From positions 30,581 to 94,580 of IMG/VR virus record IMGVR_UViG_3300021400_000056: 64,000 bases of DNA; one strand, written 5' to 3'. This DNA is from a virus. Taxonomy: Duplodnaviria > Caudoviricetes. Position 1 is the stretch's first letter. The number at the start of each line of letters is the position of its first letter. A program made the position numbers and the translations under genes. The notes beneath the pieces were generated by a model. The model was given only the letters and a program-made list of their open reading frames with translations. It did not search any database and was not told the DNA's origin. Below are positions 7,826 through 50,135 of this stretch, piece after piece.

Positions 7826-7826
7826 T

Positions 7827-8141: not shown

Positions 8142-8180
8142 AAGAAAAAAGAAAAGAGAAAAGAGCCCTAATTTAGGGCT
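8142..8180 (-). terminator. Rho-independent terminator (one of about 15 similar ones between 2.6 and 14.5 kb)
   Basis: AGCCCTAAATTAGGGCT hairpin followed by a T-rich tract on the minus strand. Confidence 0.8.
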
Positions 8181-8201
8181 ACTTCTCCAGATAAGAAATA
8201 G

Positions 8202-8531: not shown

Positions 8532-8584
8532 TTCATTTGCTCCTTTCATTTAAGAAATATACTAGAAGAAAAAAGAAGAGAGGA

Positions 8585-8800: not shown

Positions 8801-8864
8801 AATAAGTTCCTCCTTTACTTTATATAGGTCTTCTGTTTCATTAAGGCGTCAGAAATTTTTACGA

Positions 8865-9155: not shown

Positions 9156-9186
9156 TTCATAAGCTCCTTTCATTTTAAGAAATATA

Positions 9187-9693
9187 CTATTCAAATAGCA
9201 TACGAACAGCTTCGATATCTATAGGTGCATCGATAACGCTTTCTTCCACGAAAAAGTCGAAACTGACGCGGTAATCTGGGAAACCCACATATCGCCAATC
9301 TAGTCTTTCCTTAGTTTCTATTCCATTTTTGTAAATATACTCAGGGACAAGGCTTGACGGAGCAACACCCCTGATTGCTTCGATCGCTTGTTCCAAGCTA
9401 GAATATGATCCAACGATAAAGTAGCCGCTCAAATTGTCATTAAGATCCTCTACAGGAATGTCATATGAGCATTTAACCAAATATACTTTTTCAGGTCCAT
9501 CAACTTTAAGATAACCGACGCTGCAGCCCAACGATTCCGCAAGCTTATCATAGACTTCCTGTTTTCTAGGGCGTACATTTTTCAGCTCATAATTGACATA
9601 CGCTCGTCTAGAAATTCCTATAGACTTAGCGATCTCTGCCTGAGTCAGTCTTTGTTTAAGTCTAAGAATTTTAAGTTTCTTACCAAATTCCAT
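9187..9693 (-). CDS. XRE-family HTH regulator with C-terminal paralogous domain (repressor candidate)
   Basis: FGKKLKILRLKQRLTQAEIAKSIGISRRAYVNYE. Confidence 0.85.
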   Translation of the reverse strand: MEFGKKLKILRLKQRLTQAEIAKSIGISRRAYVNYELKNVRPRKQEVYDKLAESLGCSVGYLKVDGPEKVYLVKCSYDIPVEDLNDNLSGYFIVGSYSSLEQAIEAIRGVAPSSLVPEYIYKNGIETKERLDWRYVGFPDYRVSFDFFVEESVIDAPIDIEAVRMLFE

Positions 9694-9718
9694 TTCATAA
9701 ACCCCTTTCATTTTAAGA

Positions 9719-10045
9719 TTATAATAAGAAATCATTATCAGGATAATAAATGACGTCGGTATTTATCTCGTCGATTCTGACGATGTATGTCCAAGTGGAT
9801 CTTCCCCAATCGGTAGCTTCAACGATTCGCTCTGTCCAGCTATCCCCACTGTTAATTTTATCATCGTTAATTCTTTCCATTTCACAAGGCCATGATTTTG
9901 TGAAGCTGTTAACGTCGAGATTTTTAACAGCTTCAATCGCTTCGTCCAGATTGTGAAATACTCCTAAAAATTTTTGCGCATGAAAATAATCTTCATAATG
10001 CCCATCGTTCTCTACAAAACATTCGACTTTGTACATAGTGGCCAT
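9719..10045 (-). CDS. Hypothetical protein, paralogue of 8202-8531
   Basis: MYKVEC...FLGVFHNLDEAIEAV. Confidence 0.7.
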   Translation of the reverse strand: MATMYKVECFVENDGHYEDYFHAQKFLGVFHNLDEAIEAVKNLDVNSFTKSWPCEMERINDDKINSGDSWTERIVEATDWGRSTWTYIVRIDEINTDVIYYPDNDFLL

Positions 10046-10146
10046 TTCATAAGCTCCTTTCATTATTTGAAATATGCTAAAAGAAAAAAGAAAAGAGCCC
10101 TAAAATTAGGACTCTGCCAACTGCGCGACCAGCGCCGGGCGAGTGC

Positions 10147-10299
10147 TTACGCCCAGAAGTACCAGTCGAGGACCACGTCCCCGGACCGATTGTAGTCGCG
10201 TACAATCATGTCCGGAGTATAGTTCTCGTCATAGTGCTCCTTGACGTCTACAAAATCGCCAGTGACCTGGTCAACGTAAGTTATGTTAATTACTCCCAT
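10147..10299 (-). CDS. 50-aa protein MGVINITYVDQ...DWYFWA, not in the ORF track
   Basis: Manual translation; motif plus AAAGGAG upstream, terminator downstream. Confidence 0.7.
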   Translation of the reverse strand: MGVINITYVDQVTGDFVDVKEHYDENYTPDMIVRDYNRSGDVVLDWYFWA

Positions 10300-10363
10300 T
10301 TCATTTACTCCTTTCTTTTTGTTTCATTAAGGCATCAAAAATTTTTACGAGACAAAAAAAAAA

Positions 10364-10497
10364 GAGAAGCCTAGATCGCTTCTAACGATCGTCTCTTGAA
10401 TTTAGACAAAGTCCAACTCAAGCGTTCTCCAGTTAAACTATTATCGGGGTTGGGCCTCTTCGGCCTCGCCATCTACGCTATTCCCCGTCAGCTTCTC
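10364..10497 (-). ncRNA. Candidate structured small RNA
   Basis: GAGAAGC/GCUUCUC closing stem, internal hairpins, U-tract; follows a motif copy. Confidence 0.45.
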
Positions 10498-10656
10498 ATT
10501 AAAGCATGAAAATTTTTTACGACTTTCATAAAAGAAAAACCCCGGACAAGAATCGTTATCCGAGGTGCATTCATTGTACTTTTCTGAATTATCGTTCACA
10601 CAAATATACTCATCTTCGATCTCAAGATGGTATAGGCAGTCTTTACATGTTTTCAT
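10441..10656 (-). CDS. Small Cys-rich protein (CKDC...C...C)
   Basis: Start MKTCKDC; the C-terminus runs through the motif. Confidence 0.55.
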   Translation of the reverse strand: MKTCKDCLYHLEIEDEYICVNDNSEKYNECTSDNDSCPGFFFYESRKKFSCFNEKLTGNSVDGEAEEAQPR

Positions 10657-10948
10657 CCGCTTCCGATTCCTCCAAAATACGATCAATCGTATCTGCTAAA
10701 TGGTTAAAGTTCTTTCTATCGATCCCGTCTTTAGAAATTAAAAACCCTTCATTAAATTTTTCCTGCAAGAATTTTCTTATAACTCTAACTCCTGAAATAT
10801 ACACAAAAGATCCAACAGCATTCCCGCTCAACTGATAACGCAGACCGTCATACCCTTCGATTTTAATAAGCCCGATCTTTTCAAGAAAATATACCAATTT
10901 CCTCTGCTTGTCATTAACCACCACGATTGTTGTATTCTCGTTCCTCAT
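10643..10948 (-). CDS. Hypothetical protein
   Basis: GAGG RBS; operon packing. Confidence 0.65.
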   Translation of the reverse strand: MRNENTTIVVVNDKQRKLVYFLEKIGLIKIEGYDGLRYQLSGNAVGSFVYISGVRVIRKFLQEKFNEGFLISKDGIDRKNFNHLADTIDRILEESEADENM

Positions 10949-11117
10949 ACATTACCTCTTTATAGTCTTCAACAAATGCTTTAAAATGAATCAGATCATT
11001 TCTCATCTGGTTCATAAGGACTGTTTTTTCAAGTTTACCATATCCAGCAGGCATGTCAATTTGTTTCAGATAAGGCCTTATCTGAGTATAAATCCTAATT
11101 CTTTCATCTTCATTCAT
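10914..11117 (-). CDS. Hypothetical protein
   Basis: GAGGAG RBS. Confidence 0.55.
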   Translation of the reverse strand: MNEDERIRIYTQIRPYLKQIDMPAGYGKLEKTVLMNQMRNDLIHFKAFVEDYKEVMYEEREYNNRGG

Positions 11118-11217
11118 GTCATAAACTCCTCTTCGTTAATCGGAAATATACTTAGAAAAAAGAAAAGAATCATAGGACTGAATTCTTTTTTCTCTTCAAT
11201 CCTATGATCCCTAAAAC

Positions 11218-11403
11218 CTACCGATGTTCGAACCCATTCGCGAGCAGATACCTCTGCTGGGAAAGATCCTTAGCATCAACAATGATACTATCATTCGTGA
11301 CCTCAAACTGATCATTATCGACATCATAGCCGCTAACGATCATCCTTGCCATCAGCATCGTAGTATCATCATCTGTTACTCTAAGCTTCTTTTCCATCTT
11401 CAT
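11218..11403 (-). CDS. Small hypothetical protein in a motif-gene-terminator unit
   Basis: AGGAGG RBS. Confidence 0.65.
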   Translation of the reverse strand: MKMEKKLRVTDDDTTMLMARMIVSGYDVDNDQFEVTNDSIIVDAKDLSQQRYLLANGFEHR

Positions 11404-11463
11404 TGTATTGTCCTCCTTATATGGAAACGTTCATTTTAGTTTCTATTAAAGGACAAGAAATTT

Positions 11464-11706
11464 TTACGATTGGCTGTTTTCGTCTGAAATATCAGCTATG
11501 TCTTCACGAAGAACGTTAAACTTCTCGTTCTCGAACTTTGCTTTAAGCTCGAGATTACGACTAATCAACCGATCTACTGTATTCACTCCTTTCTGCGCGC
11601 TGACTGCATTTTCAAGCGCCTCAGTTACGGCCTCTTCATACTCAGACTTAAGGTTCCTAAGCCTCTTAAGATTTTCATCAAGCAACTTGATCTTCTCTTC
11701 GTACAT
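11464..11706 (-). CDS. Coiled-coil protein
   Basis: AAAGGAG RBS; heptad pattern. Confidence 0.65.
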   Translation of the reverse strand: MYEEKIKLLDENLKRLRNLKSEYEEAVTEALENAVSAQKGVNTVDRLISRNLELKAKFENEKFNVLREDIADISDENSQS

Positions 11707-11798
11707 GAATGCTCCTTTCAAAATATCACTTCAATGCCTATCTCATATAGTTCAATAGGAAAAAGAAGAGAGGACCGATTAAGTCCTCCCATCTTAGA

Positions 11799-11933
11799 TC
11801 ACTTCTTCTTTTCTCTTTCTTTGAGTTTCTTTTCGACCGCATCGTCGATCTGCTTTTCCTGCAGCTTACTCGGGATGATAAAACTCCCGATAGCACACAC
11901 TACTCCGCCGATCATCAGTAATACTGTAGACAT
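11799..11933 (-). CDS. 44-aa single-TM peptide MSTVLLMIGG...KEREKKK, not in the ORF track
   Basis: Manual translation; AGGAGG RBS, motif and terminator. Confidence 0.7.
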   Translation of the reverse strand: MSTVLLMIGGVVCAIGSFIIPSKLQEKQIDDAVEKKLKEREKKK

Positions 11934-11988
11934 ATAAAACCTCCTTGAATTTGAAATTTACTGTGTTCTATTAAGACATCAAAAATAA

Positions 11989-12426
11989 TTACGAATCCAG
12001 AACCTCAATCACATCCGGGTTCCATACGACAATTGAGTCGACATCCCATGAGTAAAACAGATTCGTATCATGAAGCTCGCACCAGTTCTCACTCAGATGT
12101 ACCTCCATCGCATCGAATTCAGAGTAGATTCTGTTAAGATCCAATTTGCATCCGAAAAAGTGTGGATTAAGAGTGGTAAAAGGCTCGACGTCTCTTAAGT
12201 GTCTAACATGAAGGACCCTCGCTCCGTCTTTTAACTTAAATCTAAAATTCATAGCGAGCTGCTCTTCACTTCTAAAATCTTCAGCTTCACACCACTCTCT
12301 CCATCCCCAGTCAGTGTCTTCAGGAGATGCCCAAAGACCGGATGGCTTATCCCATCTGTCGAATTCCTTGACTATAAGTTCAGGCTTAAACACATCGCTC
12401 CCACAATGAATATACACACCTTCCAT
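11989..12426 (-). CDS. Hypothetical protein, possible ADP-ribosyltransferase-like fold
   Basis: YIHCGS...GLWASP...WDVDSIVVWNPDVI. Confidence 0.65.
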   Translation of the reverse strand: MEGVYIHCGSDVFKPELIVKEFDRWDKPSGLWASPEDTDWGWREWCEAEDFRSEEQLAMNFRFKLKDGARVLHVRHLRDVEPFTTLNPHFFGCKLDLNRIYSEFDAMEVHLSENWCELHDTNLFYSWDVDSIVVWNPDVIEVLDS

Positions 12427-12515
12427 TTCATACCTCCATTTAGTACTTACAACTACCCTCGATAACAAAAAAAAGAGAAAAGACCCCTAAGATTTTCTCT
12501 TAAGGGCCTTTCACC

Positions 12516-12665
12516 TCAACTCTCGTCAGTCACCTCCAAGATCGATTCTCCGATCCATCCGCCGAACTTCTCGCCGATCCAACCTCCGATTACCGTTTCC
12601 AGTGTCAGGAAACCGATAAATGCGAAGATCTTACCAACAAGTACCATTTTAGCTTTTGTAATCAT
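12516..12665 (-). CDS. 49-aa Gly-rich membrane peptide (IGGWIGEKFGGWIGE), not in the ORF track
   Basis: Manual translation; AGGAGG RBS, motif and terminator. Confidence 0.7.
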   Translation of the reverse strand: MITKAKMVLVGKIFAFIGFLTLETVIGGWIGEKFGGWIGESILEVTDES

Positions 12666-12729
12666 AATTATCCTCCTAAAAGTATGATCTTCCAATTTGT
12701 TTCATTAAGGGCATAAAAAAAATTACGAA

Positions 12730-12948
12730 TTATTTGAGCAATTTTGTGATTAATAGCTCAAGCTCTCTTCTTTCTATCTCTCCATTAAGACCAACATAAA
12801 CTTTGTACTTTCCGTTATCTGTTGACTCGATTTCGAACGTAGTAAGTTCCGTTGTAATGTCACAGCCGGTTGCTTTTTTGAGCTTTTTGTTTATAAATTT
12901 GCATATAAGCCGTTTTAAAAATATACTTCTAATCCTCAATTCGTCCAT
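12730..12948 (-). CDS. Conserved phage hypothetical protein
   Basis: AAAGGAG RBS before MDELRI. Confidence 0.7.
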   Translation of the reverse strand: MDELRIRSIFLKRLICKFINKKLKKATGCDITTELTTFEIESTDNGKYKVYVGLNGEIERRELELLITKLLK

Positions 12949-12983
12949 TACTGCTCCTTTCATAAAAAAAAAGAAAGAGCCCC

Positions 12984-13217
12984 TTATTCAGGGGTGTCTT
13001 CCTCTTTGCTAGTTCCTACAAAATCGCTTATAAGTGAACTAAATCCTCCACTTATTGTGTATGAGATCCCGTCAAAATGCCCACAGATAGCCTGCTGCAA
13101 TGCGACGTCTAATATCGCTATAACGCCAATTGCGAATAGTATAGCTTTAAGTATCGCCATCACTGCAAACAGCCAAACTGCATATACTCTGTATAAACCT
13201 CTCTTAATAAGTTCCAT
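12984..13217 (-). CDS. Small membrane protein
   Basis: Long hydrophobic segment; motif and terminator. Confidence 0.65.
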   Translation of the reverse strand: MELIKRGLYRVYAVWLFAVMAILKAILFAIGVIAILDVALQQAICGHFDGISYTISGGFSSLISDFVGTSKEEDTPE

Positions 13218-13306
13218 ATAGCTGCCCCCTTTAAGCTTTTTGCTATTAAAGAAAGATAAAAATATACGAAAAGAAAGAGAGGCCGAAGCTTCCCTTTCGG
13301 TTACTT

Positions 13307-13471
13307 CTACCTCCTCCCTAGCCTAGCCATTACGATCCTCGCAAGAATAATTGCTGCTGCAATTACAACAATAGGTACAATGAATTCAAGTATAACTCCG
13401 AGTACGATCAGTACTACAGAAATTATCCCTGCAACAATTGCTGCCAAAATAGTTGTTATTACTGCTAACAT
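13307..13471 (-). CDS. 54-aa highly hydrophobic peptide
   Basis: GGAGG RBS before MLAVITT. Confidence 0.7.
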   Translation of the reverse strand: MLAVITTILAAIVAGIISVVLIVLGVILEFIVPIVVIAAAIILARIVMARLGRR

Positions 13472-13585
13472 ATTTCTACCTCCGTAAAATAATGTTCTAT
13501 GTGCTATTAAAGAGGCAAAAATTTTTACGAAAAGAAAAAAGGGAGAGGAGCCGATCTCATTTCGGTCTCCAATCCCGATCTCCAT

Positions 13586-13663
13586 TTAGTCTCGTTTATT
13601 CCTCCTTTCATCGTGTAAAATTATTAGAATTCCGATCACAATAATGATTAACCCGATCTCCAT
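13586..13663 (-). CDS. 25-aa hydrophobic peptide MEIGLIIIVIGILIILHDERRNKRD (type I toxin-like)
   Basis: Manual translation; AAGGAGG RBS, motif and terminator. Confidence 0.6.
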   Translation of the reverse strand: MEIGLIIIVIGILIILHDERRNKRD

Positions 13664-13799
13664 AAAGTTACCTCCTTTAATTTGAAATATGCCGACTATA
13701 TACTTCCATCTAATGGGCGAAAAAAAATACGAATGACAAAAAAAAAGAGGAACCGGAACTTTTACGTTCCGATCCCAAAGTCGATCCTACAAGTTACAA

Positions 13800-14135
13800 T
13801 CAGAATTTCCATTTCGGAATAAACCCGAGAATCTTGGAAGTTACCGCTCCAACCTCTTCGATTTCTCCGATTCGCTTAGATAGCACAAGTGTCACGACTC
13901 CCCCGATCGCACTGCTTCCCAGTTTTCCGATCATATCTCTGCGAGATTTCTTCTCCTCAGCCAGATTCCGATTGTTTGCATTAACATCATCGGATTCCGC
14001 CCTAAAAGAATCCACCGCCGCATCGTTTAACATCTTAAACTGCTTAACAAGCGATTCTCGAGTTTCCGGATCCTTCTCCGTCCTAAGCTCCTCTAAGATC
14101 TCTCTCATACGTTCCTGTAACTCAGCACTACCCAT
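13800..14135 (-). CDS. Conserved phage coiled-coil protein with C-terminal hydrophobic segment
   Basis: AGGAGG RBS before MGSAEL. Confidence 0.7.
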   Translation of the reverse strand: MGSAELQERMREILEELRTEKDPETRESLVKQFKMLNDAAVDSFRAESDDVNANNRNLAEEKKSRRDMIGKLGSSAIGGVVTLVLSKRIGEIEEVGAVTSKILGFIPKWKF

Positions 14136-14197
14136 AAGTATTTCCTCCTTAGAAATGTGCTTGTATACTTGTTTCTTCATTAGACCCCCAAAAATTT

Positions 14198-14416
14198 TTA
14201 CGGATTTTCTACCGTGTTGATGACTGTTAAATATACGTGTCTCTTAGACGGAATCTCATCCAGTGGAATGTGAAACTCCATCAGGTAACGATCCCTTGCC
14301 GGATCCGATACGTCGACTTTAAGCACTCCGTCCGGTTTTCTCTTCGTAATGAAAATCCCGAACAAAATGCCAAAAAAGGCGCATCCGAAATATCCAGCAA
14401 TAACAATAAGATCCAT
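14198..14416 (-). CDS. Small membrane-anchored phage protein
   Basis: TM segment then G.LKVD.SDP; AAAGGAG RBS. Confidence 0.7.
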   Translation of the reverse strand: MDLIVIAGYFGCAFFGILFGIFITKRKPDGVLKVDVSDPARDRYLMEFHIPLDEIPSKRHVYLTVINTVENP

Positions 14417-14495
14417 ACTTTTTCTCCTTTCTAAAAGTTTTACAAAAATCCCATTAGGGGAAATTTTGGCAAAAAAAAAAAATAAACAAAAAGAA

Positions 14496-14596
14496 AAAGA
14501 GCGAATCGTTGGTTCTGATTTTTTTATCCGTCATTAAACGTCGCTAAGATCGTCTAACACCGATTTCATCAATCAGTTTCATCAACTCTACTCTTT
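14496..14596 (-). ncRNA. Candidate small RNA
   Basis: AAAGAG/CUCUUU closing stem plus U-tract after a motif copy; only a 12-codon ORF. Confidence 0.35.
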
Positions 14597-14617
14597 CTAT
14601 TAAAGGACAGGAATTAT

Positions 14618-14971
14618 TTACGAATACCCTTTTCTCTCACTAAGGAGCCAGAAGAACTTAGCTCTAAGATCATCGAACTCGCCCTTACTCAAAGTCACTC
14701 CTAACTGAGAGAAGCTAACATCTTCGGTTACAGATCTTAAAATATATATACCATACTTCTTGTCTGTATCCACAGCCGTCGTCTCGATCAGCCGGATGCC
14801 ATTTATTAAATTAGTAAGTTCTGTTGCAGTATCACCGACGGGATCCTCGCCGTCAGCAAACACCAATCCACTTAGTCTCCTAACACGATCTCTCATCTCG
14901 TAATACTGCAAACAGAAATGCTTCAGCTCTCTGTATCTGTGCGCGGACAACTGATAATTATTTGTTGCCAT
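14618..14971 (-). CDS. RinA/ArpU-like transcriptional regulator
   Basis: HRYRELKHFCLQY...RAKFFWLLS; start at MATNN. Confidence 0.6.
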   Translation of the reverse strand: MATNNYQLSAHRYRELKHFCLQYYEMRDRVRRLSGLVFADGEDPVGDTATELTNLINGIRLIETTAVDTDKKYGIYILRSVTEDVSFSQLGVTLSKGEFDDLRAKFFWLLSERKGYS

Positions 14972-15468: not shown

Positions 15469-16677
15469 ATGCTGATAAAATGTATTGAATGTGGCGGAAC
15501 AGTATCCGATAAAGCCGCTTTTTGTCCGCACTGTGGTTTCACTAAAGAAGAACCGATCATTAAGCCTGTAAAACCAAAGCCAAATAAAAGAATGCGACTT
15601 CCAAATGGTTTCGGACAAATATCATTGATTAAGAACCAAAACTTAAGGAACCCATACCGAGTTATGGTTCCAGACGGAAAGACCGAAACGGGAAGGCCAA
15701 AAGCTAAGCTCCTTAAGCCAACTGCGTACTTTAAAACGTATAACGAAGCGTATGCAGCACTAACAGAGTACTGGAAGGATCCCCATCTTAGGCCTGACAT
15801 AACTGCTGAGGAGCTTCATGAGAAATGGACAGAGGCGGCACTTAAAGACGTTCCAAGACATGCAAAATATACCAGAAGCGAGTGGCCTTGGCGTTACTGC
15901 GTATCGGCTTACAATGTAAAAGTTCGCGACATCAGAATCTACCATATAAAAGCCTGTATGGACGGTGAAGGATCCGGAGAAATTCCAACAGCAAGCGCTA
16001 AAGGCCAAATAAAGACCATGTGGAACCAGATGCTTGACTATGCTGTTGAAAATGATTACGTCGATAAGAACTATGCCAGAGCTATGAAGTATTCAGTTCC
16101 CGGCGCAAATAAAGAAAGCGGCATGCATAAATCTTACACCGATGACGAACTAAATATTCTCTGGGCAAATGTATTTAAGAATCCGTACATTGATATGACA
16201 ATTGTTCAATGCTATTCAGGTTGGAGACCGTCCGAAATATGTTCGATCAAACTGTCAGATGTTGACATTAACAACTGGACCATGACCGGCGGCAGTAAGA
16301 CAAGTGCAGGAATAAACAGAACGATTCCGATTCACTCTCTCATTAGGCCGATTATCAAATACTACTATGATCTTTCCACGAGGGAAAATTACAAGACTCT
16401 TTTTATCTCGCCTGGCAATAACGTAGAGATTACGTACAGCAATTTCTACAAATATCTTGAACTGCATTTGGCTAAGATCGGTTTGGCTGATACGCATATC
16501 CCTCATGACGGAAGGAAGTGCTTCGTGACTTTGGCTAAAAGATACGCAGTAAATGAATATGCAATCAAGAGGATCGTCGGGCACGTGATTGACGATCTTA
16601 CTGAAAGAGTCTACACAGAAAGGCCTATGGAATGGCTCTCTGATGAGATCGAAAAGATCAAGTGGGAGAAAAAATAA
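15469..16677 (+). CDS. int: Tyrosine integrase with N-terminal zinc ribbon
   Basis: CxxC..CxxC; SGWRPSE (R), KT (K), HDGR, VGH and VY catalytic motifs. Confidence 0.95.
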   Translation: MLIKCIECGGTVSDKAAFCPHCGFTKEEPIIKPVKPKPNKRMRLPNGFGQISLIKNQNLRNPYRVMVPDGKTETGRPKAKLLKPTAYFKTYNEAYAALTEYWKDPHLRPDITAEELHEKWTEAALKDVPRHAKYTRSEWPWRYCVSAYNVKVRDIRIYHIKACMDGEGSGEIPTASAKGQIKTMWNQMLDYAVENDYVDKNYARAMKYSVPGANKESGMHKSYTDDELNILWANVFKNPYIDMTIVQCYSGWRPSEICSIKLSDVDINNWTMTGGSKTSAGINRTIPIHSLIRPIIKYYYDLSTRENYKTLFISPGNNVEITYSNFYKYLELHLAKIGLADTHIPHDGRKCFVTLAKRYAVNEYAIKRIVGHVIDDLTERVYTERPMEWLSDEIEKIKWEKK

Positions 16678-16679
16678 AG

Positions 16680-16926
16680 TGTAGGAATAATGTACGAAAT
16701 GTGTATGAGTTTACTTAAAGAGATGTATAAGTAGTGTACGAATAAAGGAGACGCAAGTACGTTTTTCTAATGCTAATCATTAAATCAGCATGTTTGAAAT
16801 AACGTAAATACGTCTCCTTTGCACGACCTGCTATCAAGTACTAGCTTCCATAGTCTTATTATATAAAACTTGAAAATGGCGGATTTAAGCCATTTTGAAG
16901 CGGCTAGTGTAGGAGTAGTGTAGGTT
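16680..16926. other. Putative attP with arm-type integrase-binding repeats
   Basis: TGTA(G/C/T)(G/A) repeats phased at 11 bp (16680, 16691, 16702, 16724, 16735; 16908, 16919) flanking an AT-rich core, immediately after int. Confidence 0.65.
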
Positions 16927-42299: not shown

Positions 42300-43261
42300 C
42301 CTTTAATCACCTCCGAAACTGCCTTCTTGTCTACACGAACGTTATCGAGTCTGGTGTATTCGGCTGATGTGCAGCTATCTAAAATTTTAGATACTTTATC
42401 GCCTTTATATGTTTTATTAGTCTGACAATCTCGTATTATAACCTGCCTATTCTTAACTTCATAAACGACACTATGCCCACCACCAGCGCCCCATGTAACC
42501 GTAAGATTACCACGTGCACCATCGGGTTGCTTTAAGATGGCTTTTACAGTTTTTTGGGTGCATTCAGTATTTTTACCTCGAGCTGCTTTTAAAACGTCAT
42601 CATATGTCGAAGCAGTGTACGCGTTCTTTGTCTTAGCATCCGGATACCATCGTCTAATTTCATTTGTGTAATATCCGCTGCTTGCTTTTTCAGCTGTAAC
42701 ATCGTAACCTCTTCTTCTCAAATCATATGTCGTTGTGCAAAGCATACAATTCGACTTTGTATTTGCATCAAAGTTTCTATATGAAGGGTTGACCGCCGCC
42801 ATATCTTCTTCCTCTGTCCAATGACGATCTTTAATTTTTAACTCTTCATTTTCTGCATCACTTTCAAGCTCTGAAATTCGTCGATCGTTCATAAATGTCT
42901 TCGTGTACGCAATGGCTGCTTCTCCAGCACGAATAGCGTCTTTTGCTAATTCTAAACGATTAACTTCCAGATCATCTCGAACCGTTTTTCTGATGAATTT
43001 AAATAACTCTCTTTTATCCGATTTCTGATGCTCTTCCTCGCTAGTCTGAAACTGATACGGGCTATATACGTTAAACTCCGAATCCTCGTTCGGATCGACA
43101 AACTCAGGATCTGCAAGGCTGCTGTCTCCGGCAATTCGTTCGATTCCTCTTTTCCCATCTTTGCGAATATAACCCGTGCCATAGGGCTGAGAAGTTCTAA
43201 GCCCCCAGTTCATTCCTTTCTTGCCAAAATGAGAAATATACTGATTATTCATCGAGCTCAC
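42296..43261 (-). CDS. HHG-motif protein with C-terminal papain-fold toxin domain (Tox-PL/glutamine deamidase-like)
   Basis: YISHFGKKGMNWG; NCMLC...LRRRGYDVTA...GGHSV...DCQT (Cys-His-Asp/Gln). Confidence 0.75.
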   Translation of the reverse strand: MSSMNNQYISHFGKKGMNWGLRTSQPYGTGYIRKDGKRGIERIAGDSSLADPEFVDPNEDSEFNVYSPYQFQTSEEEHQKSDKRELFKFIRKTVRDDLEVNRLELAKDAIRAGEAAIAYTKTFMNDRRISELESDAENEELKIKDRHWTEEEDMAAVNPSYRNFDANTKSNCMLCTTTYDLRRRGYDVTAEKASSGYYTNEIRRWYPDAKTKNAYTASTYDDVLKAARGKNTECTQKTVKAILKQPDGARGNLTVTWGAGGGHSVVYEVKNRQVIIRDCQTNKTYKGDKVSKILDSCTSAEYTRLDNVRVDKKAVSEVIKG

Positions 43262-44910
43262 CTCCGGCCACTAAGCAGATCTCTAACAAGGTCTTCGCCG
43301 AAGTCAATATTGCTAGTCTGTCTTGTAAGATCACTTGCTTTCTTAGAATAGGCTTTCAGATTCTCTGTAGCTGTCTTATTATAATTTCTTGCTTCAGCAC
43401 TCGGATTAAGAGTTAAAGGACCGGTGCTCGATCGTCTTGACGAAGAACTTGACGTAGGACCCGGAAGAGCCGCTCTAGAACTTCCGCTAACGGGAATTGC
43501 TCTGCCATTTACGACTTCAGCATCAATAACTCTTGGTCTATTCGAGGACGATCTGTCGTTTCTGCTATTCATGGTAAGCCGAGGCTGATTGTACTGAGAA
43601 CCGCCGAGTTCTTTATTAGAAGACGCTCTTTCTGACGACGCATCTTTCCTGTAACTCTTAGCGTTCAAATCAGAATTTCCCCATTTTGAACCAACTGAAG
43701 CGGACATCCTTCCGTAATCTCTTCTTAGCATCGCCTCTACCTTATCTTTGGGCTGCGTAGAGTAAGGAGAGGTTCTATTCGCCCCCTGAAGACCTAGATT
43801 CGTCCATTTGTTATTAAACGTTTTCGTAGACGAAGAAGAATCACTGGACTCTGATTTATTTTGTGAATCTTCCTTCTTAGAATCTTCTTTAGGAATTGAC
43901 TTATCAATTGTGGCTTTCTTAGTAACAGAATCAAATGCTTCTTTCTTCTCGGAAGAAGACATACTTGACCAAAGATTCGAGATGGACTTTGCGTCTGCAC
44001 TATTGATAGCTTTCTCAATCTCTGTAGGATCGCGCTTGATCATTCCTTCAATATTTTTCTGGTTATTAAGTCGATTGAGGGCTTTCTGAGTTTGATCAGC
44101 GTTCAAAGATCCTTCTCTTGAACCTCTTAGAACTTCTTCAGCTGAGCCAGAGTTAACTAAGCGATTAGCTGCCTCCTCCGCCGCTTTCTTTCCTTCATCA
44201 AGGATCCTATTCTCAATATTAGCCTGATTATCAAGTCTGTTCTTAGCGGTTTGGACCTGATTAGCGTCAAGCTTCCCGTTCCGAATTGCGTTAAGAACTT
44301 CTTCGGCTGAACCAGAGTTAACAATTCTATCTGTTTCTTTACCCTTTTTCTTCTCAAACCCAAGCGCTTTAGCGGCATCGTCAATGTTACCTTTAAGTTT
44401 AACGCCCTGACTAACCAATTCATTAGCAGTGCCAATATACCCTGCAATCTTCTTAACTTTTTCCTGAATCTGATCTGCTTTCTGAAATCCAGCGTCAATC
44501 TGTCTCTGCCTAAGTTCAGCTACTTTGGTTTCTTTTCCGGCTCTCTCAAGGAATTTATCAATGTCATCATTCGAGAATAGTTCTTTTCTTGCAAGGAGCT
44601 TCTCAGCATCGCCGGACTTCATAATTTCTTCTTTTTCTGCTTTTACTTTTCGTGCTTTTTCAAGACTAGCGGCTCTCTTCTTAGCTGCTATCTTCCTTTT
44701 ATGCGCAGTCCTAATCCCTTTAACGCCTTCACTAATTTTGTTGCCTACTCGTTTGGCAAGGCCGACTTCTTTACCGGTTTTGCCACCTTTTCTGGGACCC
44801 GTGGTGGAATACGGCTGAAAACGACGTATTCCCCAGTGCATTCCTCTTATCCCAAAATGGGCCAAGCAGCAATCTCTCCAATCGTTATTGCCGTAGTAAT
44901 TAATCTCCAT
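43258..44910 (-). CDS. HHG-motif protein with internal ~52-aa repeats and low-complexity tail
   Basis: CLAHFGIRGMHWGIRRFQPY; VNSGSAEEVL twice. Confidence 0.85.
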   Translation of the reverse strand: MEINYYGNNDWRDCCLAHFGIRGMHWGIRRFQPYSTTGPRKGGKTGKEVGLAKRVGNKISEGVKGIRTAHKRKIAAKKRAASLEKARKVKAEKEEIMKSGDAEKLLARKELFSNDDIDKFLERAGKETKVAELRQRQIDAGFQKADQIQEKVKKIAGYIGTANELVSQGVKLKGNIDDAAKALGFEKKKGKETDRIVNSGSAEEVLNAIRNGKLDANQVQTAKNRLDNQANIENRILDEGKKAAEEAANRLVNSGSAEEVLRGSREGSLNADQTQKALNRLNNQKNIEGMIKRDPTEIEKAINSADAKSISNLWSSMSSSEKKEAFDSVTKKATIDKSIPKEDSKKEDSQNKSESSDSSSSTKTFNNKWTNLGLQGANRTSPYSTQPKDKVEAMLRRDYGRMSASVGSKWGNSDLNAKSYRKDASSERASSNKELGGSQYNQPRLTMNSRNDRSSSNRPRVIDAEVVNGRAIPVSGSSRAALPGPTSSSSSRRSSTGPLTLNPSAEARNYNKTATENLKAYSKKASDLTRQTSNIDFGEDLVRDLLSGRR

Positions 44911-44929
44911 TTTGAATCCCTCTAAATGC

Positions 44930-46264
44930 TTATCTAGCAAGTCGATTTATCAACTTTCTTCCACTCATAATTTCTTCATAATTAGCATTCGCTCTGGTGT
45001 AATTGTATTTAACACTTTTACGTTTTCGCGAATTCTGCTTCTTTCTGGCGTCTAAGCTTCGTAATACGGCTTCGGTTCTACGAGCATTTCTCGCCCTGCT
45101 GCTAGAATCTTTTGAATGTGCAGAACTTCTTCTCTGACTATTTTTAGCCATCTTACTTCTAGCTGAGGCTTCTGCTGCTCTTGCAGATTTTTCAGACTTG
45201 CTCATCGACTTGGATTCGCTAGATTTAGATTTTTCGCTTTCGTGTCGTTTAGACGATCCGAGTTTCTCATTAACTAAATTCTGAATCTCAGCATAATCAT
45301 AACCTTCTTTAGCAAGTCTCTTTTTTCGCTCTTCGCCGTTACCGTAATTTCCGTTAATTACACTTTCAACGAGTTTATCGACTTTTTCCTTATCCGCCTT
45401 CGACTTTGTTTCGGTCTTCGGCGCATTAATGTTTTTCTGCTGCTGATCGGATAATGTAGAACGCGTTGCCGCTCCATTTTTAGCCTGCTGATCAGACAAG
45501 GTAGAACGCGTTGCCGCTCCATTTTTAGCCTGCTGATCAGACAAGGTGGATGCCCCGTTTCTCTGAGCTGCTGGGTTCGTAGGTCTAGCGGCATTGATAT
45601 TCCTTCTCTGCTGATCTGAAAGGTTTGAATTTGCGGCTTTAATGTTCGCTGCTTGCTGATCGGTAAGCCAGTACTGTGTCGACGCCTTTAAATGCTTATG
45701 CCATTTCATTCCTTTAACACCAGAATGCGTTAAATATCCGGTTTCAAAAGCACTAGAAAATGCGCTCTGTTCCAACGTGTCAAGCCGTCTAATGTACTTG
45801 TCAACTTTTCGTTCAAGTTTCATATTCCTGTACTCCAACTTACTAACCTTCATTTTCCAAGCGTTTTGCTTTTTAACAATTCTGGCAATTCGTTTATCGA
45901 GTTTGTATGCTTTTTTCATCGCTCTTGACTCACGTCTTGTTGGTTCAAGATTGTAAAGCATTTTTCGTGTTCGTGCGCCTTCAACTCTTTTTGTCAGCTT
46001 CGCACGTCTTCTTTCAAGGCCAAGCCTCTTCATCTCTCGCCGTTGATTTCTAGTAGAATTAGAATAATTATTCAGTTTATCCAGTTTATTGTTATTCTTT
46101 TCTATCTTCCCTTTTGTTTTTTCAATTTTCTTTTCTAACCGAACTTTTTTCGGAGAATATCCTCCTTGCCCATATGGTTGAAATCGTCTAACGCCCCAAT
46201 GCATTCCCGAGATGCCGTGATGCGAAACGAAGAACTCGTTATCACTTATTGCAAAGTAGTCCAT
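44930..46264 (-). CDS. Protein with two HHG-type motifs, LSDQQ repeats and a CW_7 (Cpl-7) cell-wall-binding repeat
   Basis: VSHHGISGMHWG, LTHSGVKGMKW; VINGNYGNGEERKKRL...YDYAEIQNLVN. Confidence 0.85.
   Translation of the reverse strand: MDYFAISDNEFFVSHHGISGMHWGVRRFQPYGQGGYSPKKVRLEKKIEKTKGKIEKNNNKLDKLNNYSNSTRNQRREMKRLGLERRRAKLTKRVEGARTRKMLYNLEPTRRESRAMKKAYKLDKRIARIVKKQNAWKMKVSKLEYRNMKLERKVDKYIRRLDTLEQSAFSSAFETGYLTHSGVKGMKWHKHLKASTQYWLTDQQAANIKAANSNLSDQQRRNINAARPTNPAAQRNGASTLSDQQAKNGAATRSTLSDQQAKNGAATRSTLSDQQQKNINAPKTETKSKADKEKVDKLVESVINGNYGNGEERKKRLAKEGYDYAEIQNLVNEKLGSSKRHESEKSKSSESKSMSKSEKSARAAEASARSKMAKNSQRRSSAHSKDSSSRARNARRTEAVLRSLDARKKQNSRKRKSVKYNYTRANANYEEIMSGRKLINRLAR
45456..45545. repeat. 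Two exact 45-bp tandem repeats (coding TLSDQQAKNGAATRS)
   Basis: Direct comparison of 45456-45500 with 45501-45545. Confidence 0.9.
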
Positions 46265-46267
46265 GGA

Positions 46268-46900
46268 TTAACCTCCAATCAACCGCCTAATTGCTTTTGA
46301 ACTGGAAAGCGAGGAAGACCGTGTGACACTAGTACCGCGACTCATTCCGCCAGATCTAATAGATCTTCGATTTGCATTTGCCAACCGTTTATGTTTAAGT
46401 CCGGCTCTCCTATTCGTGGAAATATCCTGATCCGTGCGCTTTCGTACTCTAGTGGACAAAGATCTATTTCCGAAACGAAGGGCTTTTCTTGCCGCCATCT
46501 CTTTATAGACGCTATTTGACGCAAAAGAATTTGCAGCATCGTCATGTCTTTCAATGGAGGCTTTGTGTTTCTTCCATTTCATTCCTTTCTTACCGTAATG
46601 AGCAAGATACTCTCCGCCTTTGTAATATCTAAAATCGTTATTTGAATACATAATCTGATCCTCATTGTGAGACAAATACTTCTTAGGAACGTATTTAATA
46701 AACCGATTCTCTTCTCCTACTGTAAAATCAGAGAAGCTCATTCCATACTTTCTCATTCTCTTAAGTATTGCTTTTGCAAGTTCTTTTTCATTTGCCGGCG
46801 ATACATAATTAAAAAACCTTATGGCGGATCTAACGTGCCTCTTATCCGGCATTGGATACTTCTTTAACTTTGGAAGACCGTACTGCTTATTGTCTTTCAT
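46268..46900 (-). CDS. DUF6582-like domain plus internal HYG motif, basic protein
   Basis: YGLPKLKKYPMPD..HVRSAIRFFNYV; YLAHYGKKGMKW. Confidence 0.8.
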   Translation of the reverse strand: MKDNKQYGLPKLKKYPMPDKRHVRSAIRFFNYVSPANEKELAKAILKRMRKYGMSFSDFTVGEENRFIKYVPKKYLSHNEDQIMYSNNDFRYYKGGEYLAHYGKKGMKWKKHKASIERHDDAANSFASNSVYKEMAARKALRFGNRSLSTRVRKRTDQDISTNRRAGLKHKRLANANRRSIRSGGMSRGTSVTRSSSLSSSKAIRRLIGG

Positions 46901-47118
46901 GACTTATCTTCTTTCATCGAATCAAGAAAATAGCCAAAAGCCGTCTTCTCACCTTCAAGTTTTTTACCAGCAGGAATTCCTGTTCCGACACCATGTTTAA
47001 CACGATCACGCTCTTCGGCTTTCTTTGCGTTATTCCATTTATCCATTGTCCCGACTAAATAGCCAGTAATCCTTCTAATTCTCTCGAAGCGAATTCCTTC
47101 GCCCATCTTCATATCCAT
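46897..47118 (-). CDS. Stand-alone C-terminal glycyl-radical domain of class III ribonucleotide reductase (NrdD)
   Basis: RIRRITGYL...WN.AK.AE..DRVKH. Confidence 0.85.
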   Translation of the reverse strand: MDMKMGEGIRFERIRRITGYLVGTMDKWNNAKKAEERDRVKHGVGTGIPAGKKLEGEKTAFGYFLDSMKEDKS

Positions 47119-47654
47119 TATAGTGCGGTTCCTCTCATTTTACTCATAGCTGCAAATACTGATTTACTACGTGCCTTTCCTTTTACGGATTTAAACGATG
47201 AGTCAATCATCTTAGCTATTTTTTCTTTGGCTTTCTTTTGTCCAAGTTTAACTGATTTTTTAGCAGATCCCTTTTTAGATGATGCCGGCTTTACATCACT
47301 GGCGCTTATTGGCTCATACTGTCCTCTATTAGCTTCTACTCTAAGACCGCTCGTTGTAGCAAGCATTCGATTTCTTCTGTAAATATCCTCAATCGTTCCG
47401 CCTTTTGCACTTTTTCCGCCGCCAGCTCCACCAGACTTAGACCTAGCTTTTTTATTTAGCATTTCGGCCCTGGCTCTGTTTCTGGCGTCAGCGTCCATGT
47501 CTCTTGCCATCTGCTGCCTGAGTCTGTTTCTTCTAATAGCTTTAATCTCGGCTGCGCTAAAGCCTCCCCTTTTCTTCTTCCATTTCATTCCTTTGACACC
47601 GTAATGAGCAAGATAGTCTCTATAATCGTTACGGCCAAAATAATCATTACCCAT
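47118..47654 (-). CDS. Basic HYG-motif protein
   Basis: YLAHYGVKGMKWKK; Lys/Arg-rich. Confidence 0.85.
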   Translation of the reverse strand: MGNDYFGRNDYRDYLAHYGVKGMKWKKKRGGFSAAEIKAIRRNRLRQQMARDMDADARNRARAEMLNKKARSKSGGAGGGKSAKGGTIEDIYRRNRMLATTSGLRVEANRGQYEPISASDVKPASSKKGSAKKSVKLGQKKAKEKIAKMIDSSFKSVKGKARSKSVFAAMSKMRGTAL

Positions 47655-47681
47655 TTTGATGTCTCCTTTTTAGTTTTCATC

Positions 47682-48021
47682 CTTTATAAAATTCATTTGG
47701 CAGAACCATATTAGCTATGCCAAGCGTATTAGCCATGCCAAGCGCGTTCACTTATTGCCTACTTTTGGCTAGCTATCCCCTCGAACAAGTGCCCTAATTA
47801 AACCTAATCGATTACCCGTTGGCATAAGGTTTGTTTTCACATGCTTGAACCCCTTATCTGTACATCGTATTAGAAAGGAGGTATTACGTAACGAGCAGAA
47901 AACCCGGCATGATAAACATTTGATAATCGATAGTCGTTACTTCGCGACGACCTACGCTTAGTCCGCTGGAATAGCCTCACCAATACACCAAACTTTCAGA
48001 CACCAAATGAACTTTATAAAA
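47682..48021 (-). ncRNA. Candidate ~340-nt structured non-coding RNA
   Basis: 19-bp closing helix fully paired on the minus strand (2 G-U pairs), internal stems, no ORF. Confidence 0.55.
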
Positions 48022-48069
48022 GACCCGAAGAGGAAAGGTGTTATCCAATCCTCCTCGGAGCTTTAATCA

Positions 48070-48366
48070 TTAGAAAATTCCAAGTTGCTTCAGGGCGTAT
48101 CCAATAAGAATTCCGACAATGCCAGTAATTACTGTCTTTACAACATCCTGCCACATCTTTGCATCCTTATCTTCAAGCGCGTCAAGACGTCTGGATTGTT
48201 CTTTTTGTGTGTCGACCATATTTTTAACAGTCATAGTCAATCTCTCAACAGAAATCGTCAACGCATGTATTTCCTCTTGAATTGTCTCGATCTTGTCGAC
48301 ACGTTCTTCTAATCTTTTCATTCTCTCACTACATACAGCTTCTGTAACCATTGCGGAATCGCTCAT
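48070..48366 (-). CDS. Coiled-coil plus C-terminal TM protein (XhlA-like, lysis-associated)
   Basis: Heptad repeats followed by W..VV...ITGIVG.LIG. Confidence 0.7.
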   Translation of the reverse strand: MSDSAMVTEAVCSERMKRLEERVDKIETIQEEIHALTISVERLTMTVKNMVDTQKEQSRRLDALEDKDAKMWQDVVKTVITGIVGILIGYALKQLGIF

Positions 48367-48851: not shown

Positions 48852-49295
48852 TTATCCAACCCGATTAATAGTAAGGTTCGAGTTCCTGACAAGGATCGGC
48901 TCGGCAGTCTCGGAGTTGTTCTCGATAGCAACCGATACACAGCATCCCTTCGGAACATCGATAGTAGCTGTAGAGGTGACATTACCGTACGCGTCTACTA
49001 CAGTCGGTGTGTAAGCGGCAAGACTTGTAGCAAGCGCTTCGCCACCGATAGCTACTGCAAGGGAAATCTCCCCAACAGTTCCACCTGTAGGAACAGCAAT
49101 GTTACCGTTAAACACAACCTGATACTTTGCGTAATTAGCGCACGGGTTGTTCACGATCCCACGGAGAGTAAGCACACCAGATCCGTCACGATGCATGATA
49201 TAGCCTTTTCTGCAAGGGTTCGAACCGGTGAGTAATACATTCTGTCCATAAGCAACGGTCTGCTCAGCAGCGTATACATACTCAGCCATGATCAC
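48852..49295 (-). CDS. Beta-sandwich protein (BclA-C/C1q-like)
   Basis: QTV..GQNV, HR.GSG..TLRG, Y.V.FNGNIA, CC..V..EN. Confidence 0.65.
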   Translation of the reverse strand: MIMAEYVYAAEQTVAYGQNVLLTGSNPCRKGYIMHRDGSGVLTLRGIVNNPCANYAKYQVVFNGNIAVPTGGTVGEISLAVAIGGEALATSLAAYTPTVVDAYGNVTSTATIDVPKGCCVSVAIENNSETAEPILVRNSNLTINRVG

Positions 49296-49301
49296 GCCTC
49301 C

Positions 49302-50135
49302 TTACATACCGCAGCCGCAGGTATTCCAACCAGCGTTCGTGCAGCAGTTGGGATTCTGAACCACGTAAGCGGGTCTGGGAGTAGGAGCAAGATACTGTTC
49401 GAGCGCCTTGGTCTGTGCGAGATTGTCGGTAAGGATAGAAGCAGTCTGCGCGTTCTGAGATGCGGCAAGATTAGCCATTGTAAGCTGATTCTGAAGTTCA
49501 GCAATCTTCTCGTCCTTGGCGTTGATCTTATCCTGACACATCTGATCCAGAATTCTCTGGGTATTCGCATTGTTCTGCGCGGTTACGGCCTGAAGAGCTT
49601 CTGTTACAGCAGCTCTATCACTGCATGCTTCATTAGCAACAGTGTATTTAAGATCGGCTGTCGCAGCTCTGTTCTCACAGCAGCAGTTTGCAAGTGCAGC
49701 GTTAAGCGTGTTCATACCAGTAAGCATCGCGGTCTGATTCGCGAAATTCTGCTGCATGTCTGCCATCTGTCTAGCATTAGCGGAAGCCTCTGCCGCAGCA
49801 AATCCGGAATTAAGAGCAGTGTTCACTCCAGCAAAACCATTGCAAAGAGCCTGGTTAACACCAGAGAAACCGTTTACAACAGCGGAATTGATTCCAGTCA
49901 CACCGCTCATAACGGACTGCTGATCAAATCCTCTCTGGATCTCTCCACCTGTACCATTTCCGTTGCCATAACCGAAACCATTGCCCCAATTGCCCATCAG
50001 AGCAAACAGGAACAGAACGATGATCCAGAAAGATCCGTCGCCCCATCCAAATCCGCCATTACCAGCACCATAACCGCCCATAGGAGATACGGGCATAACC
50101 ATTCCGTTACCGTTTGTGTTCTCGCTAAAAGACAT
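49302..50135 (-). CDS. Gly-rich TM plus long coiled-coil protein with CCC motif
   Basis: GGFGWGDGSFWIIVLFLF; NCCCENR; Cys-rich C-terminus. Confidence 0.8.
   Translation of the reverse strand: MSFSENTNGNGMVMPVSPMGGYGAGNGGFGWGDGSFWIIVLFLFALMGNWGNGFGYGNGNGTGGEIQRGFDQQSVMSGVTGINSAVVNGFSGVNQALCNGFAGVNTALNSGFAAAEASANARQMADMQQNFANQTAMLTGMNTLNAALANCCCENRAATADLKYTVANEACSDRAAVTEALQAVTAQNNANTQRILDQMCQDKINAKDEKIAELQNQLTMANLAASQNAQTASILTDNLAQTKALEQYLAPTPRPAYVVQNPNCCTNAGWNTCGCGM

Follow-up and report, generated by a model that had tools for sequence, protein, structure and literature searches.

A conserved, strand-specific structured RNA ahead of the head/packaging genes of a phage, from a family absent from Rfam 15

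The ORF-free gap and its predicted fold

We analysed a stretch of 64,000 nucleotides (hereafter the window) covering positions 30,581 to 94,580 of the IMG/VR virus record IMGVR_UViG_3300021400_000056, a phage contig of 94.6 kb with terminal repeats. The subject is a structured RNA encoded on the minus strand of a gap between its late genes. From position 64000 to 16925 of the window nearly all genes lie on that strand, and the gap, 415 bases long (47655-48069), is the largest interval of the window free of minus-strand open reading frames (ORFs; cut-off, at least 45 aa). An earlier note on this DNA had said as much of the late region, and the statement holds window-wide. On one side the gap is bounded by an XhlA-like gene with a terminator-like hairpin, and on the other by the first DUF7211 gene of the head/packaging operon. 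Further downstream lie a mini-ORF for the C-terminal part of NrdD, more DUF7211 proteins, TerL and a likely portal gene; the latter was called from its position only, and the TerL domains were read in relatives. The main features of the locus are listed here in the direction of transcription (SD, Shine-Dalgarno sequence; alignments A4 and A6 are described below).

48070-48366, minus: upstream flanking gene, XhlA/hemolysin-like, 98 aa (PHROG 937, E = 3.9e-12; homologues found)
48025-48058, minus: hairpin P0 after the XhlA-like gene, 10-bp G+C-rich stem followed by UCUUUU (RNAfold probability 0.98)
47679-48024, minus: structured RNA from the first to the last base of helix P1, 346 nt (alignments A4 and A6, RNAalifold consensus, covariation counts, strand specificity, z-scores)
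48002-48024, minus: 5' arm of P1, 23 nt, taking in the U-run after P0 (pair probability 0.89-0.99 in every lineage)
47679-47701, minus: 3' arm of P1, 23 nt, ending 24 nt before the DUF7211 start codon (RNAfold, consensus, covariation)
47652-47666, minus: SD GGAG (47663-47666) and ATG (47652-47654) of the DUF7211 gene (alignment of relatives)
47118-47654, minus: downstream flanking gene, 178 aa, with an N-terminal DUF7211 motif (Pfam PF23847, E = 7.7e-9; homologues found)

The gap is closed by an inverted repeat (47682-47700 / 48003-48021) with two non-Watson-Crick positions, which are G-U on the minus strand only. This 19-bp helix had been described in the earlier note, and RNAfold lengthens it to 23 bp (48002-48024 with 47679-47701, pair probability 0.97). 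The repeat (19 nt, 89% complementary, with a 9-nt exact seed) was missed by two automated repeat searches, the output of which is not exhaustive, and was established by reading and folding. The hairpin that the same note had placed upstream, P0, was likewise predicted; it begins 11 nt past the XhlA stop codon and abuts P1 with zero nucleotides between them. With its G+C-rich stem-loop and U-run on the transcribed strand after a stop codon, and its covarying stem, the predicted P0 looks like an intrinsic terminator. It was not called by a simple consensus terminator scan, probably because the scan permits a loop of 3-8 nt, and the apical loop of P0 with its inner mini-stem is larger.

The minimum free energy (MFE) of the minus strand was -126.7 kcal/mol (z = -3.86), none of 100 shuffles being as stable, and a separate set of 40 shuffles gave z = -4.58. 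The fold of the plus strand had a z of -2.25. A genome-wide control indicated that the minus strand is about 15 kcal/mol more stable than the plus strand everywhere in this genome, so the strand asymmetry of one sequence is weak evidence and not diagnostic. When stability was regressed on GC content, the gap stood at -2.35 standard deviations, which is high yet not the most extreme stretch of the genome. One sequence alone thus proves little about an RNA. Among the inner stems proposed earlier, the GUCGU/ACGAC hairpin is part of the MFE structure, while CACUUGUU and AAUAAGUG, which are indeed complementary, are unused in it and are not kept in relatives. The SD of the downstream gene is unpaired both in the MFE structure and in the consensus described below.

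Conserved helices in rumen phages

Relatives were reached via homologues of the two flanking proteins, both poorly conserved, in a large protein collection and then via their contigs, the syntenic loci coming from sheep-rumen and other assemblies. They form five lineages (the rumen clade).

Lineage A: the window, L160, L162, L163
Lineage B: L164, L178, L192, L185
Lineage C: L175, L179
Lineage D: L171-L174
Lineage E: L194, L195

All five share the same gene order, with an ORF-free gap of 316-407 nt at the same position, and the gaps of all relatives are homologous to that of the window (nhmmer E from 1e-129 to 1e-46). The RNA itself measures 255-346 nt. In conservation the gap roughly equals the coding DNA upstream of it and exceeds the downstream gene, and invariant blocks of 9-27 nt survive in it while the flanking coding DNA is only 61-79% identical. 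The first downstream gene carries DUF7211 in lineages A, B, C and E and is an NrdD-like ORF in lineage D. Downstream genes are swapped between lineages exactly at the 3' edge of the element, which marks the boundary where these phages exchange head and cargo gene modules. The sequence at the downstream gene start, TCAAAATG, is invariant even in lineage D, where a different first gene, the NrdD-like ORF, follows directly.

A consensus structure was computed with RNAalifold on ten rumen-clade sequences (alignment A4). It contains the following helices and, besides them, small hairpins.

P0: hairpin after the XhlA-like gene
P1: 23 bp, begins directly after P0
P2: GUCUG with UAGGC
P3: short helix
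P4: AUUAUC with GGUAAU
P5: short helix
P6: CAUGC with GCAUG
P7: ACCUC with GGGGU

In these helices 96.6% of the cells are paired. Changes on both sides of a pair were found in 21 pairs, compared with 8.6 ± 1.9 in shuffles (none of 500 reached 21) and 2-12 when the partners were slid. P1 accounted for 7 of them, P0 for 5 (of its 10 pairs) and P4 for 4; in alignment A6, which holds 17 sequences of three size classes, the count for P1 was 13. The P1 changes of L175, L171 and L194 were checked by eye (AUA/UAU to CAU/AUG; U-A to C-G twice; G-U to C-G). In every rumen lineage P1 has a constant length of 23 bp with no indel and no bulge, and there is one mismatch each in lineages D and E. Single-sequence z-scores ranged from -3.3 to -4.6 in all ten sequences.

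Further evidence came from the strand on which the helices pair. P1 has 40 G-U cells and 2 A-C cells, and the alifold energy is -57.9 kcal/mol for the sense strand against -21.9 kcal/mol for its reverse complement. This one-sidedness points to an RNA made from the strand of the genes and argues against a DNA palindrome, a protein-binding inverted repeat or a transposon end. A decayed palindrome was rejected as well, the DNA-level alignment of the two arms being gapped and poor. Coding was also considered: all six frames have 3-17 stops each in every lineage, a GUG frame on the sense strand runs for 5-30 codons depending on the lineage (read from alignment A4), and the longest antisense open stretch is frame-broken in L160, L178 and lineages C and E. 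Since no reading frame is kept in relatives, the RNA is neither a protein-coding gene nor a small ORF. An antisense small ORF behind a perfect plus-strand AGAAAGGAGGT was discarded, because it has no start codon at a usable distance and its frame is not conserved. The comparison of relatives thus shows that positions 47679-48024 of the minus strand encode a real, conserved and strand-specific structured RNA. The collection of syntenic regions that the earlier note had proposed as a check, with compensatory and G-U changes keeping the helices in five lineages, a strand-specific fold and no Rfam match (below), bears out its reading of a structured phage RNA that it could not assign.

Within the RNA, the following sequence blocks and repeats stand out, again on the minus strand.

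47978-48001, minus: family-wide 5' block GUCUG-AAAG-UUUGGUGU, in which GUCUG is the 5' strand of P2 (nearly invariant in rumen lineages; also in L208 and the compact forms, below)
47872-47882, minus: anti-SD-like block ACCUCCUUUCU, the first bases of which pair with GGGGU as P7
47837-47855, minus: AAGGGGUUCAAGCAUGUGA, an SD-like GGGG, a 7-nt spacer, AUG and an immediate UGA (fold and alignment)
47740-47766, minus: family-wide 3' block AAAAGUAGGCAAUAAGUGAACGCGCUU, with an invariant core; UAGGC at 47757-47761 is the 3' strand of P2
47709-47744, minus: 18-nt tandem duplication within a length-variable region (2 exact copies where 0.03 are expected)
47702-47712, minus: conserved AAUAUGGUUCU block beside the 3' arm of P1 (alignments)

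The sequence ACCTCCTTTCT, which the earlier note had seen at 47872-47882, is present there on the minus strand. The block ACCUCCUUUCU is, we presume, identical to the 3' tail of Firmicutes 16S rRNA, and within the apical domain CCUCCUUUC is invariant across the five rumen lineages amid variable surroundings. Also invariant in the rumen clade is AAGCAUGUGA, the GCAUG of which pairs with CAUGC (47907-47911) to form P6. The GUUC of the AAUAUGGUUCU block can pair with GAAC of the 3' block, and this helix, which never varies and so offers no covariation, is present in the consensus of the compact form. The tandem repeat noted earlier is real, but specific to the window's own phage among the aligned lineages. 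It was rejected as a set of activator binding sites because it is not conserved, and its unit, used as a search pattern, gave a single chance match.

Two observations concern the genes next to the RNA. A 73-aa ORF (window 46897-47118, minus) corresponds to no more of NrdD than its glycyl-radical C terminus (Pfam PF13597, E = 3.3e-8), and it is kept as a small stand-alone gene beside the RNA in every rumen lineage. The DUF7211 motif opens several otherwise unrelated proteins before TerL (window 47118-47654, 46268-46900, 44930-46264 and 43258-44940) and its DNA is repeated (47575-47620 and 46569-46614, 91% identical). The repeated DNA may serve as a recombination point for swapping the downstream cargo genes.

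Compact relatives and known RNA families

A pattern made from the 3' block, AAGTAGGCRAYAAGTGAACG, matched 39 IMG/VR contigs. These were 36 human-gut phage contigs with a compact form of the RNA, L208 with an intermediate form, L179 of lineage C, and L225, a chance match in coding DNA. The compact form is about 153 nt long and nearly identical in the aligned copies from human-gut contigs, and the L208 form is about 193 nt. A variant with 76% identity is present on a gut-phage fragment from GenBank, MT838775 (L234). The rumen-clade profile matched both blocks of L208 (E = 2e-12 and 6.5e-6). In the window, L208 and the compact forms, the same elements are collinear: a short P1, P2, CUGAAAGUUUGG, AAGUAGGCAAUAAGUGAACG, and AUGGUUCU next to the 3' strand of P1. 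The core thus consists of P1 stacked on a 5-bp P2, a 5' block (GYCUG-AAAG-UUUGG-YG) and a 3' block (AAGUAGGCAAUAAGUGAACG...AUGGUUCU), and the central domain between the blocks varies from about 60 to about 230 nt. All 17 aligned sequences have, in the same order, P2 (GYCUG with UAGKC), the 5' block CUGAAAGUUUGG and the 3' block AGUAGKCRAYAAGUGAACG...AUGGYUCU.

Across the three size classes, 14 pairs of P1 and P2 changed on both sides, compared with 6.0 ± 1.5 in the control. The inner 7-8 bp of the terminal P1 covary across the family, pair 19/357 being U-A in 10 and C-G in 7 sequences, pair 16/360 U-A in 7, C-G in 6 and U-G in 4, and pair 23/353 occurring as four pair types. In P2, pair 25/295 is U-G in 10, C-G in 6 and A-U in 1. 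The consensus of the compact form has in addition a covarying central hairpin of its own, with 8 pairs changed on both sides. By these comparisons the RNA of the window is an enlarged member (about 346 nt) of a family of phage RNAs that has no entry in Rfam 15.

In every compact locus checked, the RNA lies within a tRNA array. In L196 the preceding tRNA ends 2 nt before the RNA and a tRNA-Met(CAU) begins about 8 nt after it, with RAGATH-21 close by; in L208 the RNA lies between a tRNA-Gln and a skipping-rope RNA. A tRNA-Met(CAU) starts within about 8 nt past the RNA in 4 of 5 loci (L196:3061-3134, L197:1072-1145, L222:7819-7892 and L234:2662-2735), and in L208 (3825-3898) the skipping-rope RNA is located between the compact-type RNA and the tRNA-Met(CAU). 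The acceptor end of the tRNA-Met of L234 can be read with a C1xA72 mismatch, as in a bacterial initiator tRNA, but of the three G-C pairs in its anticodon stem only two are present. The long P1 and the absence of neighbouring tRNAs are found in the rumen clade alone: according to ARAGORN, both the window and the rumen relatives are free of tRNA and tmRNA genes, and the sole tRNA of the window's phage lies far from the RNA (G000:18731-18801).

A two-gene cassette, g277-g147 (window 48852-50135; PHROGs 16490 and 20016), is encoded on the strand of the RNA, about 1.1-1.7 kb upstream of it. It is present in the rumen clade, in 22 compact loci (about 1.1 kb upstream) and in MT838775, but the link is partial, as many cassette phages do not have the RNA and some RNA loci with ample flank do not have the cassette. 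Contigs with the compact form fall into two size classes (40-46 and 74-80 kb), and g277-g147 is carried by one of these classes only. A cassette protein is 57% identical to a protein of Butyrivibrio virus Ceridwen, and a CW_7 repeat is also found in the window. The protein similarities point to rumen and gut Firmicutes phages as the kin of this phage.

Other searches delimit the distribution. The gap DNA had no match among GenBank phages, and IMG/VR gave no relatives via the two flanking proteins. None of 72 loci found through the 147-aa cassette protein, and none of 80 loci with a 76-80% identical TerL, had the element. A search with the 5' 20-mer recovered two true members (L179 and L185), its other matches being coincidental and coding; L191, in which a terminator is followed by the 20-mer (a Lawsonibacter metagenome-assembled genome), was judged a chance match, and the rumen-specific 20-mer gave chance matches only in a collection of genomes from 185,579 species. 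Among 401 Clostridia genomes, the search for the 3' block gave one match, with one mismatch, which is the level of control patterns. This match (L237, G310:C42, ~388-406 minus) consists of AGTAGGCAACAAGTGAACC about 115 nt downstream of a tRNA gene, without the other family blocks, and we judged it to be chance or a very remote relative. Family members were found only in phage and metagenome contigs.

The Rfam search that the earlier note had suggested identified no family. There was no match at gathering thresholds in the 64-kb window, three chance-level matches only in 47500-48200 (E of 4-7), and none at E ≤ 1 in five relatives. In the compact loci only tRNA, RAGATH-21 and skipping-rope were matched, all beside the element and none on it. 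The models of Rfam 15 covered GOLLD, ROOL, 6S, RNase P, tmRNA, T-box, group I/II introns and YrlA. A tmRNA, an RNase P-like RNA, a retron, a diversity-generating retroelement and a T-box were therefore set aside, no model matching and no reverse transcriptase being adjacent (flanking genes, Pfam). As judged from these comparisons, the family is new with respect to Rfam 15; large screens list thousands of unnamed candidate phage RNAs (PMC10690425, PMC8040213), and the motif may be one of them. Its conserved blocks provide simple patterns with which to search metagenomes for further members.

In context the nearest described analogues are GOLLD (RF01998) and ROOL (RF03087), large ornate RNAs from phages and prophages of Firmicutes, which are likewise phage-borne, highly structured and of unexplained biochemical role. 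They have a length of about 580-800 nt, compared with 153-346 nt in the present family, and neither of their covariance models matched the window or any of the relatives. ROOL was originally discovered in rumen data. Both are reported to occur often near tRNA genes and in prophages (PMC5737381), and compact members of the present family likewise lie inside phage tRNA arrays, whereas the window's member has protein genes of the late operon, and no tRNAs, as its neighbours. Skipping-rope (RF02924) and RAGATH-21 (RF03097) are small, conserved orphan phage RNAs of the same tRNA arrays, lying beside members in L208 and L196; they are separate, do not overlap with the present RNA and differ from it in sequence and structure. 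The skipping-rope class has its own terminator (PMC5737381), to which nothing corresponds here.

As in SD-sequestering leaders (riboswitch platforms and RNA thermometers), a CCUCC strand pairs here with a GGGG/GGAG strand 7 nt before an AUG. In contrast to such leaders, the 'start' meets an immediate stop 170 nt upstream of the real gene start, the real SD is predicted to be free, and no ligand-binding family matches the RNA. The tRNA cluster of phage T4 contains stable RNAs, 'species 1' and 'species 2', that are transcribed together with the tRNAs and freed by the enzymes that process them. A corresponding arrangement would apply to the compact members. T4 has a proteobacterial host and, to our knowledge, nothing corresponding to the 23-bp stalk or to the block copied from the 16S tail. 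As large conserved phage RNAs such as GOLLD, ROOL and the stable RNAs of T4 are still functionally unexplained, the family adds another case.

Proposed release and possible roles of the RNA

As the best explanation of the whole, we consider it fairly probable that the RNA is a conserved family RNA which is cut from the late transcript and acts in trans. It would be produced by read-through of P0, within a long late transcript. P1 would then be cut, most probably by host RNase III, which would release a stable RNA and give the head/packaging mRNA a new 5' end. Because the rumen clade has no adjacent tRNAs and its P1 is lengthened to a constant 23 bp, we infer that excision takes place by RNase III at P1. 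RNase III sites of this kind include the stems of rRNA precursors, the intercistronic sites of T7 and the N leader of lambda, and a regular two-turn helix of 23 bp belongs to their size class. P1, with 23 bp, no bulge and at most one mismatch, fits the length and regularity required (about 20 bp or more, uninterrupted). As P1 would do, the long-range helix of an RNase III stalk, some two turns in length, encloses a functional RNA or lies between the cistrons of a polycistronic phage transcript. The T7 sites differ in being local hairpins of about 60 nt, the helix predicted here surrounding a conserved structured domain of 300 nt.

The core of the compact relatives is flanked on either side by a tRNA gene at a distance of 2-8 nt, and tRNA-processing enzymes would free it. 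One RNA would have two release routes, a double-stranded stalk in the rumen clade and tRNA flanks in the compact form. The released RNA would act in trans; since compact members stand alone between tRNAs, the core of the family is unlikely to be a 5' untranslated region (UTR) switch or a DNA site. The family constitutes a natural experiment, with one core in three sizes (~153, ~193 and 255-346 nt) and two apparent release systems, and this contrast makes the minimal functional core and the processing route directly testable.

Several observations weigh against this explanation. Covariation is good in P1, P4 and P5 only, P2, P3, P6 and P7 hardly varying within the rumen clade, and the single-sequence folds of lineages B-E miss the inner consensus helices, so that only P0 and P1 are robust. 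There are about five independent rumen lineages, and the shuffle control ignores their relatedness. The compact forms are no more stable than shuffles (z = 0.12 and 0.14). The upstream hairpin being terminator-like, the 5' arm of P1 would be transcribed on read-through only, and no promoter was found in the gap by a scan for the sigma-70 type. A possible phage-specific promoter motif, TCGTAA-N14-TTAAT, had no copy in or near the gap. The RNA has no terminator of its own, its P1 ends 10-33 nt before the next start with TCAAAATG conserved alongside, and this arrangement fits a cis-acting leader equally well. Finally, the link to translation is circumstantial, and the anti-SD block, cut to CCUCCU in L208, is missing from the compact human-gut form. 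The block is thus an expansion specific to the rumen clade and does not define the family, so that the translation sponge proposed in the earlier note does not stand as it was stated.

That the RNA remains in the late mRNA, as a leader or intercistronic regulator setting the translation or stability of the first head/packaging gene, is possible, although we think it rather unlikely. The CCUCCUUUC strand could switch between the internal GGGG...AUG site and the real downstream SD, or P1 could be a processing site that defines a stable 5' end of the mRNA. In the rumen clade the RNA invariably comes just before the gene that opens the cluster, irrespective of that gene's identity, there is no 3' terminator, and TCAAAATG is invariant; in lineage C the ribosome-binding site is even supplied by the 3' arm of P1, 10 nt before the ATG. 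The anti-SD-like block is also 90% complementary, over 10 nt, to the downstream SD region, but this is expected for any SD and carries no information. The downstream SD is moreover free in the predicted folds, P7 has no compensatory change, and the compact homologues precede a tRNA gene or another non-coding RNA and not an ORF, which speaks against a 5' UTR device in the core.

A remnant without function is very improbable. A decayed passenger of a tRNA array could have spread by recombination, its long helix being an accidental local inverted duplication, and the lack of an assigned function, the highly variable central domain with its large insertions and deletions, the tolerated recent duplication of 18 nt and the compact forms without thermodynamic signal would agree with this. 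Such a remnant would not be expected to keep invariant blocks of 9-27 nt beside less conserved coding DNA, nor to preserve P1, P4 and P5 by compensatory changes with P1 free of indels in all lineages. We give still less credence to an element acting at the level of DNA, such as a cos or pac site, a boundary of module recombination, an origin or an insertion resembling a miniature inverted-repeat transposable element (MITE). A conserved non-coding block of about 350 bp directly before packaging/head genes, where the cos sites of many Firmicutes phages are found, would suit such an element, as would terminal inverted repeats of 19-23 bp and the exchange of downstream genes exactly at the 3' edge. 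Against this, the other strand would have an A-C mismatch for each G-U pair, and the consensus energy strongly favours one strand. The homologues lie in tRNA arrays, the compact form on contigs of two size classes, and the element is absent from phages with a 76-80% identical TerL; the likely attP gap is elsewhere, beside the integrase. A MITE or a derivative of an insertion sequence, the former named in the earlier note as a finding that would count against its own reading, was looked for and rejected, there being one copy in the 94.6-kb genome, no target-site duplication, a fixed syntenic site in the rumen clade and one-sided G-U pairs.

If the RNA does act in trans after release from the late transcript, translation as its target is speculative. 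Three observations point in that direction, namely the link to tRNA arrays with a tRNA-Met(CAU) always nearby, the invariant copy of the 16S tail, and the pairing of this copy with the SD-like GGGG. Start-stop sites are known in E. coli from ribosome profiling with retapamulin (bioRxiv 10.1101/520783); the one of the window's RNA reads CUUGUGA in L208, and L234 has no start codon with an immediate stop. A more definite version, which we regard as quite unlikely, is that the rumen-clade RNA is an effector on translation initiation in which ACCUCCUUUCU is held against the mock site GGGG-7nt-AUG-UGA. It might then bind SD sequences and, late in infection, shift ribosomes between the messages of host and phage, or it might serve as a decoy for a defence nuclease or host factor by which the anti-SD tail is recognised. 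The company of tRNA-Met(CAU) in other phages would in that case reflect the same theme, and the invariant copy of the 16S anti-SD, if functional, would represent a new phage way to interfere with or sense translation initiation.

Some observations were made elsewhere in the window and in other phages. The second-largest ORF-free gap (window 16585-16924, 340 nt) adjoins the plus-strand integrase gene (15469-16677) and is likely the attP region. The motif TCGTAA-N14-TTAAT occurs in 14 copies at up to one mismatch, compared with 2.6 expected, and 10 minus-strand copies cluster in the early region (window 3356-14623), which suggests a phage-specific promoter. In five human-gut phages with a 76-78% identical TerL, a different conserved region, poor in ORFs and 300-500 nt long, lies some 2 kb upstream of TerL (L080:7636-7947, L094:7639-8151, L101:7595-8071, L129:7721-8056 and L085:7748-8143). 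An antisense small ORF in it is not conserved as a protein; a tRNA follows in some loci, and the Rfam matches are tRNA only. The region has a 26-bp long-range complement (GGTGCAGTATTTGA... with ...TCAAATACTGCACC) around two CTCCTTTC motifs, and it may be an analogous RNA at an equivalent position.

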